Below are positions 52,169 to 60,366 of a stretch of 64,000 bases of DNA, one piece after another. The first letter of the stretch is position 1, and every line of letters starts with the position of its first letter. A program made the translations under genes and the position numbers. Below the pieces are notes generated by a model. The model searched no databases. It was not told where the DNA came from and saw nothing but the letters and a program-made list of their open reading frames with translations. Origin of the DNA: Escherichia coli. GTDB taxonomy: Bacteria > Pseudomonadota > Gammaproteobacteria > Enterobacterales > Enterobacteriaceae. The DNA is taken from the NCBI RefSeq assembly GCF_003790525.1, contig NZ_CP033635.1, one strand, 5' to 3'.

Positions 52169-52196
52169 AAAAGGCTGACGATTTCTCGTCAGCCTT
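52169..52196. terminator. bidirectional rho-independent terminator (yqjH / ileX)
   Basis: Hairpin aaaggctgacg-atttct-cgtcagccttt flanked by A-run on one side and T-run on the other. Confidence 0.5.
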
Positions 52197-52205
52197 TGCT
52201 ATGTC

Positions 52206-52448: not shown

Positions 52449-53765
52449 ATGGCCGTCAATCTTACTGAAACAGCCATCCGAGCATTGAAAGCAAAAAAGA
52501 CATCGTTCTATGTCTGGAGCAACAGCTCTCAACGTGGCACTGGACGACTTGGTGTCAAAGTTCAGCCTTCTGGCAGCAAGATTTTCTATTTCCGCTATTA
52601 CGTGGAAAAAGGGAAAAAAGAAAGATTCATTCAATTGGGTATATGGCCTGAGATGAAACTGGCCACAGCGAATGAACTGACAAAAAAGTATGGTGCCTGG
52701 CTCATTGAAGGAAAGGATCCCCAGGCAGAACTGGAACGACAACAGTTTGCAGAACAGCAGCGGATACAACTCCATCAATCACAGGGCTCATTTGAAGCAT
52801 TGATTCATGGTTATGTTAACAAAATGAAAATTGATAATAAGAGGACATGGCAGGATGTTCTGAAACGCCTTGAAAATGAATGCTATACAGTGATCCCCCG
52901 TGAAACTAAAGCTAAAGATGTGACTTCCGGACAGATTAAACATATCCTGGCCGGGATCATTCAGCGCGGTGCTGTGGTTCACTCTAACCGGATCCGTTCT
53001 TACCTGATGGCTGCATTTAACTATGGACTGAAAGCAGATAACGATCCGATGAACACAAGTGTAGGGATTACTTTTGGGCTGGAGGCAAATCCGGTGTCAG
53101 TGATACCGAAACAGTCATCTGCTGAAAAAGTCGGTGATACCTGGCTGACACTTGAAGAGTTGCGTTTTCTAATGGAACATTTTGCTGAAGCAACCAACGT
53201 TGGATTATTGATGCAACATTTGATCCGATTCTGTATCTATACCGGAGGGCAACGTCCTTTCGAAATGATCGCCAGTCAGTGGTGTGATGTTGATTTTCAA
53301 CAAAAAACGCTGCTGGTGACTGCTGATGTCTCTAAAAATAAACGAGAGCATTTGATACCGTTGACTGAATCAGCATTACAGGAATTATCCTGTGTGCAGG
53401 AGTTAACAAAAGAAAAATCCAGCCCTTACATTTTTCCACTTTCGACTAATGGTAAGCGTCCGGTTCGTACGGACAGTCTGGCTCGCGCTATCATGTATTT
53501 CCGGGCTTTTAATCCTGACTTTAAAATTTTTACAGCACGTGACTTACGTCGGACCTGTAAAACGTTAATGGGAGAAGCTGGGATCAGTAAGGAAATCCGC
53601 GATCGTATTCAAAATCATGCGTTGAACGATGTCAGTTCAAAACATTATGATCGATACGATTATTTGCCAGAAAAACGCAGAGCACTTGAGATCTGGGAGG
53701 ACCGGGTTAATAACTATCAACAGCAAACAGGCAATAATGTTGTCAATCTGTTTGGCAGAAGGTGA
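52449..53765 (+). CDS. P4-type tyrosine recombinase / phage integrase
   Basis: 438-aa ORF MAVNLTETAIRALKAKKTSFYVWSNSSQRGTGRLGVKVQPSGSKIFYFRYYV... (typical N-terminal arm-binding region of P4-like integrases); the C-terminal region contains R, H and Y residues compatible with a tyrosine-recombinase catalytic core; adjacent to the tRNA fragment. Confidence 0.9.
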   Translation: MAVNLTETAIRALKAKKTSFYVWSNSSQRGTGRLGVKVQPSGSKIFYFRYYVEKGKKERFIQLGIWPEMKLATANELTKKYGAWLIEGKDPQAELERQQFAEQQRIQLHQSQGSFEALIHGYVNKMKIDNKRTWQDVLKRLENECYTVIPRETKAKDVTSGQIKHILAGIIQRGAVVHSNRIRSYLMAAFNYGLKADNDPMNTSVGITFGLEANPVSVIPKQSSAEKVGDTWLTLEELRFLMEHFAEATNVGLLMQHLIRFCIYTGGQRPFEMIASQWCDVDFQQKTLLVTADVSKNKREHLIPLTESALQELSCVQELTKEKSSPYIFPLSTNGKRPVRTDSLARAIMYFRAFNPDFKIFTARDLRRTCKTLMGEAGISKEIRDRIQNHALNDVSSKHYDRYDYLPEKRRALEIWEDRVNNYQQQTGNNVVNLFGRR

Positions 53766-56178: not shown

Positions 56179-56957
56179 AATGTTAAATTCTTCCGTCTAT
56201 TGCATAGCTGTTTCCAGTAGAGAAACTTGATACAGTCCTTTGTCAGGACATTGATACAGAGTTAACAGCCTCTACGAAATGGGAATCAGTTATGCAGTGG
56301 CATTATACGATGCTGAATCTAATACGATATCCTTAGCGTTTATTCCTGATTTTTTTACGAGCATTCCCTTTTGTTGCATATTGCTCAGGACGCAAATGAT
56401 TTTACGGTTATAGCCCTCTACAGTCACGTCACTTTCATCTGAAAATATGTATCGTTTTCATTCAATTATTATCTTTTGTCTGCACTTTAGCTTTAGAAAG
56501 TTGGCAAAAATCAACTCCCTCTTACAAGTTCTATTATCGCCAGAAGATAATTTTGTGAACTTCGTCACGTTTTCAAACTAATGTTGTGGGGGCTTTTCTG
56601 GGGAGAATTTTTGGTCACTACCCCTCCTCTTGATATCATAGATTATAACAAGATTTTTTTTGTTTTTGTCTGCATAAAATAACCTACGAATATTGTGATT
56701 TTGATTTTTATTTTGTATACCAAAAAGCATTGTTTAAGTTATTTTTATATTGTGACTTTCTTTGTTGTTATTGTGTTATTAGAAGTCAGTTAATTAAATC
56801 ATTTCTCACAATTTGATTTCTTGGTTGTGCAAATGTATTGTTTTGCTCGTGAGTTGCTGGTGCTGTTCAACAGCATACCACTACAGATAGATGTAGTGAT
56901 TTGAGCAGCTCACATGCATATACAATCTGAAAATCATGAATATATAAGGAGAGCAAT

Positions 56958-57185
56958 ATGTGGAAGCCGTTAAGAGATGAGAACCGTTTATCAATTTTGA
57001 AGATCTATGGATACACCTGTGACAGACTGGTACGAGAAAAGGAACGCCAGAAAATTACGTCTATTTCTCGTTCACAAGCCTGGAAACTGGAACGTGAAGG
57101 AAAATTCCCGCCACGTAAAACTATTGGAAAGAAATCCTGTGGGTGGTTATTAAGTGATCTATTGTGGTGGATTAGTCAGTATTAA
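56958..57185 (+). CDS. AlpA-family phage/island transcriptional regulator
   Basis: 75-aa ORF MWKPLRDENRLSILKIYGYTCDRLVREKERQKITSISRSQAWKLEREGKFPPRKTIGKKSCGWLLSDLLWWI: typical AlpA/Prophage_CP4-57 regulator pattern; strong SD (aaggag). Confidence 0.75.
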   Translation: MWKPLRDENRLSILKIYGYTCDRLVREKERQKITSISRSQAWKLEREGKFPPRKTIGKKSCGWLLSDLLWWISQY

Positions 57186-57247
57186 CCTTATAGTATCAGA
57201 ATAATATATATTTCTATATTTTAATTTTATAATTAAAAAGGAGTTTC

Positions 57248-57994
57248 ATGATGAAACGTGTCTCTTTCTCTCTTGCAGAAACATATGAAGCTGATGTAAT
57301 TAAAAAGTATCAGCATTTAAAAAAATGCTCATTTTCAGCAGCGATTAAAGAGTGTTTAAAGCTAGGGGCTCCTGTTTTAAACAGGATAAATGAAAATATT
57401 GCTGCTATAACTGATATAGAGGATAAGCTACGTCAGTTTTTTAATGAGGAACCATTTGTGCAACGGACAAAGCCTGAAATAACAAAAGGAGAGTTTTTTC
57501 ATAGCATTTATAAATCGCATATCAAATATGAATATGATGTTCTCGATAGAAAGATATTTCCTCATGAAAGCACCAGAAATGCTATGGGAGTTGCAGAGAA
57601 AAAGGGAATTAAAGAGAATGCGACCTTAATGCTGGAATATTATAAAGTTGAGAAGGCAATTTGTATTTACACGAACAGAAAAGTTTCCCATACCCTGAAT
57701 CGTGCAGGAGGGTTTTATAAAACCATTCTGATTAAAACCAGTGTTTTTGGGGATTATTTTTTTGACTTTTGCAATTCAGTTTGCCTGCCGATAGATGAGT
57801 TGATTGAGTATGGTACGAAAGAAACAGTGAGGCGACATCAGATTCGTAGTACAGGATTTTGTACTTTTCATATTCCGATTTTTTATATCAATAATAAGGC
57901 TGTAATAGTGCCTGTTCTGAGAACAGAGGAAGTTTCACAAAGTTCCAGAACAGGTGGAGATGTTATTATTATTAACCCATTTGAAGATGAATGA
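57248..57994 (+). CDS. hypothetical protein (248 aa) with possible N-terminal RHH-like segment
   Basis: N-terminus MMKRVSFSLAETYEADVIKKYQHL resembles the beta-strand-helix start of ribbon-helix-helix proteins; remainder unassigned; SD aaggag. Confidence 0.55.
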   Translation: MMKRVSFSLAETYEADVIKKYQHLKKCSFSAAIKECLKLGAPVLNRINENIAAITDIEDKLRQFFNEEPFVQRTKPEITKGEFFHSIYKSHIKYEYDVLDRKIFPHESTRNAMGVAEKKGIKENATLMLEYYKVEKAICIYTNRKVSHTLNRAGGFYKTILIKTSVFGDYFFDFCNSVCLPIDELIEYGTKETVRRHQIRSTGFCTFHIPIFYINNKAVIVPVLRTEEVSQSSRTGGDVIIINPFEDE

Positions 57995-58215
57995 TTATGG
58001 CCCGCGTAGATTTATTCATAACCCAGAAATCGTGGTGTAAATGATGAACAGAAACCGCTTTCTGAGGTTAAAGAGAGCAATCATTACCCGGGAGTGGCCA
58101 ACTCTTTTATCGAGTACTTTTCCGATGTATCTGGAGAGCCTCCCTTAGAAAAGAGTAATGCGACTCAGGAAAAAACAGGTTCAATAATTAATTCATGACA
58201 CCAGTTTGAGGCATT

Positions 58216-58776
58216 ATGGCGAGTTTTGCATACATAGACTCTGAAAAATGGTCAAAACTTAATCGCTTAAAATCCATGATTCAGAGATATTTTAAAGAAC
58301 CACTATTGCAGTTAACAGGCGAATTGGGTCGCCCGGATTATACTCTGGCAGACAGAAAACGGTTAGTTCGACTCCTGACGCAGGATATGCAAAGGGGTGA
58401 TATTCTGATTACTAAATCGTTAACTTGTTTTGGTAATACGCCGGAAAAAATACAGGAGGTTTTATCTTTAAGTATCAGACAAGGTATTAATATTTGCTTT
58501 TTTACGTCATCAGAGTTGCCGGATGGTGATGATATTCCTGTGGTACTCACCGGGATGATTTTACCTACAGATATTAGAGGAAAAATTCCCGACATCAGTA
58601 TCCGGAAAATTAAAAGAAAACCAGGAAGGAAAGAAGGGAGTATTCATAGTAAAAATATCAGACAGTTGAAATTGCAGGGGTTCAGTCAGTCACAAACAGC
58701 CAGAAAATTAAGCATCAGTTTATCCACTGTAAAAAGACACTGGGATAAAGGTATTGTTGATCTAACTGCAGAGTAA
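58216..58776 (+). CDS. serine-recombinase (resolvase/invertase)-like protein with degenerate catalytic motifs and C-terminal HTH
   Basis: 186 aa; MASFAYIDSEK.. parallels resolvase MxxIGYxRVST.. and GDILITKSLTCFGN parallels GDxLVVxKLDRLGRS, but the conserved Arg/Asp residues are replaced; C-terminal GFSQSQTARKLSISLSTVKRHW is resolvase-type HTH. Confidence 0.55.
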   Translation: MASFAYIDSEKWSKLNRLKSMIQRYFKEPLLQLTGELGRPDYTLADRKRLVRLLTQDMQRGDILITKSLTCFGNTPEKIQEVLSLSIRQGINICFFTSSELPDGDDIPVVLTGMILPTDIRGKIPDISIRKIKRKPGRKEGSIHSKNIRQLKLQGFSQSQTARKLSISLSTVKRHWDKGIVDLTAE

Positions 58777-59041
58777 CATTTTATAGTCCTTGTAGCTATT
58801 GGCAATGGAGTTATAAATACATGTGCGTTGGATAGGTAATATATATTATATCTGTGATGTATAGTATATGTGTAATGATGGATATGATGTACTAATAGAG
58901 CTAATGGTATTCTGATACCAAATAATTAGTTGTGTGTAGATCATAACTCTGTTTAATGTTTTAGAACGTTCTAATGTAACTGTGTAACATCATCCTGTTC
59001 TCTAATGTAACAATAGGCAGTAGCGTTTTTCTTAATTGACG

Positions 59042-59067
59042 CCCAGAGGGTTATATATCCCTCTGGG
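59042..59067. promoter_or_regulatory. perfect palindrome cccagaggg-ttatatat-ccctctggg
   Basis: 9-bp inverted arms separated by an 8-bp AT spacer, about 90 bp upstream of the 204-aa gene; flanked by direct repeats of tctaatgtaac. Confidence 0.4.
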
Positions 59068-59157
59068 AACTACTGATACGAATATTAATATCTGCTTCTG
59101 TTGTGTATTGGGTAGGTTAACTATTAGCTTATCTCTGAAAGCAAAAGGAATATTAAC

Positions 59158-59772
59158 ATGATTACGATTGAAACTCTTTACGGTGAATGTCATGAGGCTC
59201 ACGGGTTAAAAATAAGAAACCAGGTGAATAACCTCTTCCAGAAACATCCCAGAATAACGGCAATACGGGTGGATCTCCATTATCCTCCCGTGATTGACAA
59301 CGGGGATACCATTACCTGTTTTCCTAACCTGAGTCCCGGAGAGATATCTCGTTTCCGTAACTCGCTGAATGCGAAAATTAATGCAGATCAACACCGTAAA
59401 AAACAACAAGGCAAACGCACCTACGCAACGTCGGTTTGTATTATCTGGGCGAAAGAATATACGCAGTCCTTTAAATGTCATTATCACGTCTGCCTTTTTT
59501 TTAACAAAGACGCCTATTACCACCTGGGAGACTATGAGCGCTCTGACACCCTGAGAGGGTTAATTACCGGAGCCTGGTACAGTGCCTTAGGGTTAGAACT
59601 GGAAGATCACCAGGGACTAGTTCATTTCCCTGCTAATGGACGTTACATCCTGGATATTAACGATCCTGATTTCCCTGAGCAATATCAGCGCTTATTGGCA
59701 CGTCTGGATTATCTGACGAAGCTCGACACTAAAGCATCAGGCCAGCGTAACTTTGGCTACAGCGGTTTTTGA
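59158..59772 (+). CDS. HUH-endonuclease (rolling-circle Rep / inovirus Gp2-like, YagK/YfjJ-type) protein
   Basis: 204 aa; contains KCHYHVCLFF (H-u-H motif) and a downstream DYLTK (YxxK-type candidate catalytic Tyr); genomic context matches CP4-type prophage modules. Confidence 0.55.
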   Translation: MITIETLYGECHEAHGLKIRNQVNNLFQKHPRITAIRVDLHYPPVIDNGDTITCFPNLSPGEISRFRNSLNAKINADQHRKKQQGKRTYATSVCIIWAKEYTQSFKCHYHVCLFFNKDAYYHLGDYERSDTLRGLITGAWYSALGLELEDHQGLVHFPANGRYILDINDPDFPEQYQRLLARLDYLTKLDTKASGQRNFGYSGF

Positions 59773-59799
59773 CCTATTGTAACTGTAAGGTGATTTATT

Positions 59800-60366
59800 A
59801 TGTATACAGAATCAAACGTTAAGCTTTCCTGTAACGCCCTCTGGCAAAAGTATGTCCTTGCAACTCTGTATCGGGCTGCAGCTACACATCCTAAAATTAA
59901 ATTATTACAATTTAAATTAATACCTTGCCCAGGTATGAACAAGGCAATTCCCTCTCTGATGGCTGATTTTACTGGTGAACTGCATAGACTAATTTCTGAA
60001 TATTTGCAGTGCAAGCGACGTAAAGATAAATCTGTTGAGCCCGCCCCTTTATATTATCTCTGGAGTAGGGAAGCTGTGGCTAACGATACCACTCCTTATC
60101 TTATGGTACTGCTACTTAATAACGATGTCTGGTGTAAGAGTCGTGAGGTGGTGGCTCTCAGAAATCTGATTGAGCAGGCGTGGGGAAAAGTATTGGACGA
60201 AGATAACTCCATTACACATCAGGTTGTGTATCCTGAAGTGCTGTCGTTGGTATTTGATGCAGCTAACACATACAACGCTGAGCCTGGTGTACTGGAACAG
60301 ACGGCCCAGGCTTACATTGAATCGCATGGTGCCATTGAACGTCATCTTGGGTGTAGTGACTTTTAA
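59800..60366 (+). CDS. paralog of the preceding HUH/Gp2-like gene with degenerate HUH motif
   Basis: 188 aa; aligns by eye to the upstream gene (HPRITAIRVDLHYP vs HPKIKLLQFKLIP; HYHVCLFFNKDAY vs PYLMVLLLNNDVW; LRGLITGAWYSALG vs LRNLIEQAWGKVLD), but the two His of the HUH motif are lost. Confidence 0.5.
   Translation: MYTESNVKLSCNALWQKYVLATLYRAAATHPKIKLLQFKLIPCPGMNKAIPSLMADFTGELHRLISEYLQCKRRKDKSVEPAPLYYLWSREAVANDTTPYLMVLLLNNDVWCKSREVVALRNLIEQAWGKVLDEDNSITHQVVYPEVLSLVFDAANTYNAEPGVLEQTAQAYIESHGAIERHLGCSDF

Follow-up and report, generated by a model that had tools for sequence, protein, structure and literature searches.

A CP4-6-type island module of Escherichia coli encodes a predicted single-domain HUH endonuclease beside a catalytically dead serine-recombinase homologue

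Introduction

CP4-type islands are among the commonest accessory elements of Escherichia coli and its relatives, in which they carry defence, virulence and metabolic cargo. Their alpA-yagM-yagL-yagK backbone is already known from the CP4-6 island of E. coli K-12 and from islands across the Enterobacterales. What might this backbone do for the island that carries it? We addressed this question in a 64,000-nt stretch of E. coli DNA (contig NZ_CP033635.1 of assembly GCF_003790525.1, hereafter the window), in which five open reading frames (ORFs) at positions 56958–60366, all on the + strand, encode proteins of 75, 248, 186, 204 and 188 amino acids (aa). An original prediction, made from the sequence alone, had read these as an AlpA-like protein, a protein with a ribbon-helix-helix (RHH)-like N-terminus, a degenerate serine recombinase, a rolling-circle Rep-like nickase of the HUH type and its inactive tandem paralogue; the coordinates of the five ORFs agreed with ours, and the motifs KCHYHVCLFF and DYLTK are indeed present in the 204-aa protein. 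The analysis below corrects the identity of the YagL family, which carries a wrong RefSeq name, describes a recurrent dead HUH paralogue and a conserved site (box A/box B), and recognizes the HUH gene as the constant partner of two interchangeable middle modules.

Results and discussion

The 204-aa protein is a predicted Rep-class HUH endonuclease

The 204-aa protein matched PF11726 (YagK_YfjJ_C, formerly Inovirus_Gp2/DUF3296) over practically the whole model (4.6e-55, model positions 2–170 of 170), was 59% identical to K-12 YagK and gave a weak match to PF23343 (REP_ORF2-G2P; 5.8e-4, positions 33–66 of 99). Among 30 homologues at 39–62% identity to the window protein, R37, D39, H41, W97, E100, H108, Y185 and K188 were invariant, and H110 was kept in 29 of the 30. 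The Protein Data Bank (PDB) holds no structure of the YagK/YfjJ family. In an AlphaFold2 model (mean predicted local distance difference test score (pLDDT) 82, predicted template modelling score 0.82), H108-Y-H110 is located on the central strand (107–116) and Y185/K188 on a helix (172–187), so that the HUH motif, a YxxK tyrosine C-terminal to the HUH strand and the HUH nuclease fold are all found together. Judged by its sequence and predicted structure, the protein has a Rep-class HUH endonuclease fold with the full set of catalytic residues (E100, H108, H110 and Y185-xx-K188), in agreement with the original prediction. The same fold is found in adeno-associated virus Rep, parvovirus NS1, pMV158 RepB, phiX174 gpA and inovirus gpII, with which the 204-aa protein also shares a glutamate on a neighbouring strand and the order of an HUH strand followed by a helix tyrosine (YxxK). 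Like RepB, whose gene is accompanied by that of CopG, it is preceded by the gene for a putative RHH protein. Unlike these named Reps, however, it has only around 200 residues, lacks a helicase or oligomerisation domain and is encoded in a chromosomal island.

RefSeq names the protein 'inovirus Gp2 family protein'. Membership of the inovirus gpII replication proteins was not borne out, given the partial G2P match, the location in a chromosomal island and the near-absence of homologues from phages: a single weak, unannotated YagK-like record was retrieved among 50,697 phage records. Homologues were found on plasmids, where 41 of the 67 matching records were typed as conjugative and nearly all of the matches listed were on plasmids >50 kb. 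Because YagK homologues are near-absent from phages and occur on large plasmids, the RefSeq name reflects a fold relationship rather than a phage function.

Two interchangeable middle modules alternate upstream of a constant HUH gene

We compared the gene neighbourhoods of YagK relatives in 39 loci from Yersinia, Photorhabdus, Serratia, Citrobacter, Dickeya, Pectobacterium, Providencia, Proteus, Aeromonas and other genera. Two arrangements recurred between alpA and the HUH gene. In the CP4-6 type, to which the window belongs, the order is int-(yagN or yfjH)-alpA-yagM-yagL-yagK, whereas in the CP4-57 type it is int-alpA-yfjI-yfjJ; the middle module is therefore either yagM plus yagL or yfjI, and the HUH gene is the constant element. 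YfjI matched the phage DNA helicase family phrog_2373 (5e-100) and also a primase family; the slot of this primase/helicase is taken in the CP4-6 type by the RHH protein and the dead resolvase described below.

The module of the window can be recognized as the conserved backbone operon of a CP4-6-type island with a P4-family integrase, located beside nfeF. Gene order and strand are the same as those of ykgV-yagM-yagL-yagK in K-12 CP4-6 (with intF and yagN), with identities of 31% for YagM, 36% for YagL and 59% for YagK, and K-12 shares the box A/box B element between yagL and yagK. The window differs from K-12 CP4-6 in its integrase type, its insertion site (beside nfeF and not at a tRNA gene), its AlpA class, a longer leader of unrelated sequence before the HUH gene and the extra tandem HUH-less paralogue, K-12 yagJ being unrelated to it. 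The original prediction had considered an active/inactive HUH pair beside a dead resolvase to be unusual; nickase and dead resolvase belong in fact to the standard K-12 CP4-6 backbone, and their combination recurs in many genera.

Like the window, the CP4-57 backbone, intA-alpA-yfjI-yfjJ, has an integrase gene, alpA and an HUH gene of the YagK/YfjJ family with box A/box B upstream, but where it has the DUF3987 helicase/primase YfjI the window has the RHH protein and the dead resolvase. In PICMI satellites, whose core is int-alpA-prim, the replication gene encodes a DUF3987 primase (PMC10803314). CP4-57, the PICMI core and the window are alike in having a DNA-processing module after alpA, although a YagK gene has not been reported for PICMI satellites (PMC10803314). 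Pseudomonas tmRNA islands, which carry intY, alpA and an 'inovirus Gp2-like' gene, move by jumbo-phage transduction, with no role assigned to that gene (PMC12595487). The suggestion that the module might belong to a satellite-like element did not hold: int and alpA are present, but within the module we detected no DUF3987 or other primase, no capsid-hijack gene and no PHROG structural or packaging match, and the element continues as a composite island of >45 kb (see below).

A conserved two-part site precedes yagK/yfjJ genes

Two conserved non-coding elements, box A and box B (Table 1), lie between the 186-aa gene and the 204-aa gene. Box B was found upstream of almost every yagK/yfjJ gene in our loci (L002, L003 and L006–L044, L002 being K-12 CP4-6), with a single copy in each locus that in every case had the orientation of the gene and lay 76–457 nt before the start codon. 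A position weight matrix scan of both strands of 575 kb returned one extra weak match, located in L013 in inverted orientation, 32 nt downstream of the box B there. The CAGAGT of box A starts exactly 57 nt upstream of box B. In around 26 of 32 loci, which include both module types, box A comes straight after the stop codon of yagL or yfjI, whichever gene precedes it, and a hairpin of variable sequence then follows. That both module types have box A in this position places a recombination boundary just upstream of it. The box A/box B element does not depend on which module lies upstream or on the class of AlpA.

Variation in box B correlated with YagK similarity (Spearman 0.45), compared with a partial correlation of 0.03 with AlpA class, and identical box B sequences accompany three unrelated AlpA classes; box B as an AlpA-binding element was on these grounds rejected as the principal interpretation. 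Box B as a hairpin or the arm of a long-range stem was also rejected, the pairing that RNAalifold proposed with a downstream CCAGTATATACC in the CP4-6 subgroup showing no compensatory change. Looking for box B apart from YagK genes, we retrieved 30 exact matches in IMG/VR, 11 of which were directly upstream of a YagK gene; the remaining matches are by a rough estimate about as many as chance would give for an 18-mer of that degeneracy. The core of box B, TTG(G)ATA...TAATA, may resemble the CTTG/ATA nick sites of the phiX174/pC194 class, as a lead only. Box A/box B is best described as a candidate promoter-operator, a candidate target (nick) site of the HUH protein, or both.

The leader of the CP4-6 subgroup, which runs for ~200 nt from box B to the ATG, is ~80% identical across seven genera, represented by E. 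coli, Mixta, Citrobacter, Brenneria, Edaphovirga, Yersinia and Photorhabdus (L002 6947–7140 on the − strand, L006–L012 and L020). It contains several hairpins with only one compensatory pair, so a structured RNA is not established for it, and Rfam searches of the long leaders matched no known RNA family. The leader of the 204-aa gene in the window is longer and differs from it in sequence. It includes a perfect hairpin (Table 1) that, folded as DNA, has a free energy of −10.8 kcal/mol (z = −4.5 relative to shuffles) and lies 90 nt before the gene; no T-run follows this hairpin and it was not scored as a terminator.

The 186-aa YagL homologue is a catalytically dead serine recombinase

The 186-aa protein, 36% identical to K-12 YagL, is listed in RefSeq as WP_000135718.1 and named 'type I phosphoribosyltransferase' by PGAP. 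Searched as a single sequence, it matched the Pfam families Resolvase (E 0.094) and HTH_7 (E 0.004), while phmmer against the PDB placed hypoxanthine phosphoribosyltransferase (HPRT) first (E 2.6e-4, residues 46–119) and resolvases at 0.04–0.13. A word-indexed protein search was too insensitive for this protein and the 188-aa protein, returning close relatives only, and an exhaustive HMMER search across 1.84 billion representatives brought up no more than 33 relatives of the 186-aa protein, the full-length ones being 181–194 aa long. A profile built from ten members of the family, including K-12 YagL, aligned end to end with gamma-delta/Tn3 resolvase (residues 1–175, E 2e-11), compared with a best E of only 3e-3 for HPRT. 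Pfam Resolvase was matched by four of the ten members (best 1.6e-6) and HTH_7 by three (best 4.4e-7). In a Foldseek search of the PDB with an AlphaFold model of the protein (pLDDT 72), Tn3, gamma-delta and Sin were on top (E 2e-6, probability 1.0).

The alignment with gamma-delta resolvase showed that S10, D67, R68 and R71 are all lost in the 186-aa protein, the last three being replaced by T, C and N. The S10 column of the ten family members contains C, C, A, R, P, G, V, A, R or a gap and no serine; D67 (replaced by T, S, N, H, Y or E) and R68 (by C, Y, S or D) have gone in all ten, and R8 and R71 are each kept in three. What is kept, in gamma-delta numbering, is Y6, D59, the arm arginine R142 and the helix-turn-helix (HTH), while the E-helix segment of the 186-aa protein is shortened, proline-rich and of low model confidence. 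The serine-recombinase fold and C-terminal HTH are thus present and the Ser10/R8/D67/R68/R71 catalytic set is not. Small serine recombinases (gamma-delta/Tn3, Hin and Sin) and the 186-aa protein have the same length, the same catalytic-domain fold, a GD...L..LG block, an arm Gly-Arg and a C-terminal HTH, but, unlike them, no member of the YagL family has the nucleophilic serine and both D67 and R68 are lost. As the original prediction had proposed, the 186-aa protein is a serine-recombinase relic, unable to form the phosphoserine intermediate, and the YagL family is recombinase-derived and predicted to bind DNA. K-12 YagL has been found to bind RNA and DNA via this HTH in vitro (PMC11587861).

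That the protein is a phosphoribosyltransferase, as the PGAP name and the single-sequence match to HPRT would have it, is scarcely credible: the family profile favours resolvases by nine orders of magnitude, the top fold matches are all serine recombinases with no phosphoribosyltransferase among them, the acidic pair of the phosphoribosyl-pyrophosphate loop (VEDIIDSGNT) aligns to TKSLTCFGNT, that is, ED is replaced by TK, and the C-terminus carries a resolvase-type HTH. The family profile, Pfam on its members, the fold search and the residue mapping together rule this identity out. The annotated start of K-12 yagL (L002 7221–7919) appears to be ~43 codons too far upstream; all relatives begin at the conserved methionine of MRSFFY, which corresponds to resolvase residue 1.

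AlpA and the 248-aa YagM homologue

The 75-aa protein matched phrog_2790, 'excisionase and transcriptional regulator' (3.1e-22), and an identical copy is annotated in GenBank as an AlpA family regulator. With this match to a small HTH profile and a P4-type integrase gene 3.2 kb upstream, it belongs to the AlpA/Vis family, as had been supposed.

The 248-aa protein was 31% identical to K-12 YagM over its full length (E 2e-32). Pfam returned nothing significant for it or for ten relatives. The sole PDB match of a profile of the family (11 proteins) was CopG (residues 1–38, E 0.044), and hhalign of the family against CopG gave a probability of 92.5% (E 5e-7, for a single comparison). There is thus moderate support for the proposal that the 248-aa protein begins with a CopG-like RHH. 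In plasmid pMV158, CopG acts as repressor alongside the HUH Rep, its partner.

A tandem paralogue without HUH residues is maintained by selection

The 188-aa protein matched PF11726 at 2.9e-9 (positions 26–125) and was 22% identical to the 204-aa protein (E 6e-6). The original prediction had noted the loss of both HUH histidines, and the alignment shows that the tyrosine is lost too: H108 is replaced by P, H110 by L, and Y185 and K188 by Q, while E100 is kept. TPYLMVLLL takes the place of the KCHYHVCLFF region and EQTAQ (LEQTAQ) that of DYLTK, so that the protein has neither an HUH nor a YxxK motif. Compared with diverged copies (synonymous divergence, dS, ~0.1), the ratio of nonsynonymous to synonymous substitutions (dN/dS) of the gene was 0.23–0.38, and it is under purifying selection and not a pseudogene.

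Intact 204/188 pairs were found in 322 complete E. coli genomes, and part of the pair was matched in 1,416. In many of the part-match genomes that we sampled, the 188-aa gene is intact and only the last 50–65 codons of the upstream gene are left. In this arrangement (L048, L049 and L050 8956–9747; ~1,000 E. coli genomes) the 204-type C-terminal stub is fused behind DUF7828 and zinc-ribbon genes, and a third, more distant YagK-domain gene with intact HUH residues (GLHIHF...YLAK) is located nearby.

Among the 39 loci from other species, a tandem pair was found only in Citrobacter sp. (L042 6956–8513 and L043), where it precedes a yfjI-like gene. In the second Citrobacter copy, too, neither histidine is left and the tyrosine and lysine are gone (KKYYV, DRLTI). 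This copy is nearer to the protein encoded next to it (32%, E 1e-25) than to the 188-aa protein of the window (E 2.5e-4), which suggests that it was inactivated independently. K-12 yagJ, considered as a homologue of the 188-aa gene, showed no similarity to it. This rare tandem dead paralogue is the only uncommon part of the module.

What might the module do?

The reading that we favour, though with somewhat less than even confidence, is that the HUH enzyme starts rolling-circle replication or single-strand hand-off of the excised island. AlpA would switch on both excision and transcription of the operon; the HUH enzyme would then cut one strand of the excised island at a specific site, becoming attached through Tyr185, and the nick would start rolling-circle copying or the single strand would be handed off. 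The candidate nick site is box A/box B, located just before the gene of the enzyme itself, an arrangement that resembles a plasmid double-strand origin beside its rep gene. The RHH protein and the dead resolvase would be sequence-specific DNA-binding accessory or repressor subunits, and the dead 188-aa paralogue, unable to cut, would most likely act in regulation by binding either the same DNA or the active enzyme. A role in replication initiation is plausible, and the helicase/primase in the sister module of CP4-57 points to replication. In K-12, strong Rho-dependent terminators lie upstream of yagM, yagL and yfjI (PMC9160355), and H-NS binding has also been reported, so the operon is normally silenced.

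In its broader form, this reading would make YagK/YfjJ proteins the dedicated HUH nickases of Enterobacterales islands with P4-type integrases, acting on box A-57 nt-box B for rolling-circle replication or single-strand transfer, with the RHH protein plus dead resolvase and YfjI as alternative accessory modules and the HUH-dead paralogues as inhibitors or specificity factors. We hold this generalization to be possible but on balance doubtful. The 20-nt box B and its fixed distance from box A make the function of YagK/YfjJ directly testable, as a nick site or an operator. If the HUH enzyme does nick there, this would provide a mechanism by which a very large class of islands could be replicated or mobilised after excision, and, were the dedicated-nickase form true, box A/box B would represent a new class of island origin and explain the persistence and spread of 'cryptic' islands.

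Several observations weigh against a nicking and replication role. Literature searches found no biochemical report on any member of the YagK/YfjJ family and no demonstration of nicking, replication or transfer. Plasmid and phage records yielded no case of YagK as the sole replicase of a small plasmid or a phage. Box B is not consistently found in a hairpin, since across 30 loci no inverted repeat exceeded shuffled controls, and physical linkage by itself would likewise produce its correlation with YagK. In K-12, box B coincides with a promoter, TTTAGA-16-TATAAT, found by genomic SELEX (systematic evolution of ligands by exponential enrichment) with RpoD holoenzyme (PMC3946193), and a chromatin immunoprecipitation (ChIP) peak of sigma-S RNA polymerase is located at yfjJ (PMC4447067); given RNA polymerase binding in vitro in the region of box B, the element could be a promoter-operator only. 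Finally, that the 188-aa gene is intact where its partner is truncated makes an obligate pairing or heterodimer of the two proteins unlikely.

Two rivals of the replication reading accept the module as functional. In the first, the module would be a mobilisation relaxosome, with box A/box B as an oriT-like site for nicking by the HUH protein, the RHH and HTH proteins as accessory factors and export of the strand via the type IV secretion system of a co-resident conjugative plasmid; the island would then be an integrative mobilisable element. RHH accessory proteins beside HUH relaxases are the rule in conjugation; a unique, oriented cis site adjoins the HUH gene, and the conjugative typing of most plasmid records with YagK homologues (see above) is in line with it. 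Related Pseudomonas islands do move between strains, though by jumbo phage (PMC12595487). Against this, the HUH motif precedes the tyrosine as in Reps, whereas in most relaxases the tyrosine comes before the HUH motif; the protein of ~200 residues has no extra domain, the module has no coupling protein or other transfer gene, the helicase/primase of the sister module points to replication, and MOB-suite types CP101363.1, the only small record with an identical 204-aa protein, as non-mobilizable. We judge mobilisation to be an unlikely function of the module.

A purely regulatory cassette, the second rival, would involve no cutting at all: the HUH-fold proteins, the dead resolvase and the RHH protein would all be DNA-binding transcription factors acting on island genes such as int or cargo, and box A/box B their promoter-operator. 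The RNA polymerase data for box B and yfjJ (PMC3946193; PMC4447067), the maintenance of the 188-aa paralogue without any catalytic residue, the silencing of the operon in K-12 by Rho-dependent terminators (PMC9160355) and H-NS, and the in vitro binding of nucleic acids by the YagL HTH (PMC11587861) are all consistent with this view. Yet it would leave hard to explain, in the absence of catalysis, why E100, H108, Y185 and K188 are invariant and H110 is kept in all but one of 30 homologues that are only 39–62% identical, and we rate regulation alone as fairly improbable.

That the module is a decaying, non-functional leftover of a cryptic P4-like element, with the 188-aa gene as a pseudogene-like duplicate, would fit the insertion sequence (IS) elements and gene fragments that interrupt the island, the truncation of the 204-type gene in many E. 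coli genomes and a frameshifted copy in E. albertii, but is quite improbable in view of the dN/dS of the 188-aa gene, the intact five ORFs in at least 255 genomes and the conservation of gene order, catalytic residues and non-coding boxes across genera.

Island context and distribution

The module forms the left arm of an island whose left end is marked by an integrase gene directly downstream of nfeF (Table 1). The GC content of the module region is 33–45%, compared with 50–57% in the flanks, and Shine-Dalgarno-like sequences precede the ATG of the 186-aa and 188-aa genes. An IS3-family element breaks the island after the 188-aa gene. Of 5,426 complete E. coli genomes, 255 covered at least 80% of the whole 8.4-kb stretch, many at 99.9–100% identity; given these annotated copies and the dN/dS of the 188-aa gene, the ORFs are not due to chance. 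In E. coli FDAARGOS_1298 the island runs >35 kb further past the IS element, with a raffinose/sucrose-type cluster, IS debris, lactate-utilisation genes, a type I restriction-modification system, a GTPase-family gene and Ag43. This continuation with metabolic and restriction-modification cargo makes the element a large composite CP4-type genomic island of >45 kb and not a compact satellite.

Table 1 Features of the island module and its surroundings in the window
Feature	Position	Strand	Description
P4-family tyrosine integrase gene	52449–53765	+	phrog_1 7e-46; NCBIfam PRK09692 3e-21; RefSeq: tyrosine-type recombinase/integrase
Cargo gene, 208 aa	53865–54491	+	Between int and alpA; phrog_7522 match 2e-129
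Cargo gene, 534 aa	54574–56178	−	Between int and alpA
alpA-like gene, 75 aa	56958–57185	+	AlpA/Vis-family small HTH
yagM-like gene, 248 aa	57248–57994	+	CopG-like RHH at residues 1–38 (moderate support)
yagL-like gene, 186 aa	58216–58776	+	Predicted serine-recombinase fold and C-terminal HTH
Box A	58762–58777	+	CTAACTGCAGAGTAAC (consensus CTAAyTrCAGAGTrAC); conserved non-coding, overlaps the stop codon of the 186-aa gene
Box B	58826–58845	+	CGTTGGATAGGTAATATATA (consensus TGTyGGAwAGkTAwTATAw); conserved 20-nt site
Leader hairpin	59042–59067	+	CCCAGAGGG TTATATAT CCCTCTGGG; perfect 9-bp GC-rich stem, AT-rich 8-nt loop TTATATAT
yagK/yfjJ-family gene, 204 aa	59158–59772	+	Single-domain HUH endonuclease homologue
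Tandem HUH-less paralogue gene, 188 aa	59800–60366	+	PF11726 match

We found no tRNA gene within the window, and the integrase end of the island adjoins the terminator hairpin of nfeF (AAAGGCTGACGA/TCGTCAGCCTTT, 52170–52197) instead of a tRNA gene. A direct repeat flanking the island was not found inside the window, because its right end lies beyond it. The gap between int and alpA in P4-like elements often carries defence cargo. PADLOC matched no known defence system among the module and cargo proteins, and the 208-aa and 534-aa cargo proteins had no PADLOC or NCBIfam match; their genes are also found as a pair with this int and alpA in E. albertii (locus L024).

An 11.7-kb Salmonella enterica record, CP101363.1 ('plasmid pIndS102_4', our L045), carries an identical module, with the 204-aa gene, and was considered as an excised circular copy of the island, but it is a linear contig with chromosomal flanks. 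Besides this island it contains genes for a chemotaxis receptor, a PadR-family regulator and a siderophore-interacting protein, chromosomal-type genes that hold the position of aer, nfeR and nfeF in E. coli, and it is probably a mis-assigned chromosomal contig.

The intergenic region upstream of alpA (56179–56957, 780 bp) is very AT-rich (~34% GC) and contains direct repeats, ATATTGTGA(T/C)TTT, at 56690 and 56747, 57 nt apart; this repeat-bearing stretch may be a regulatory region.

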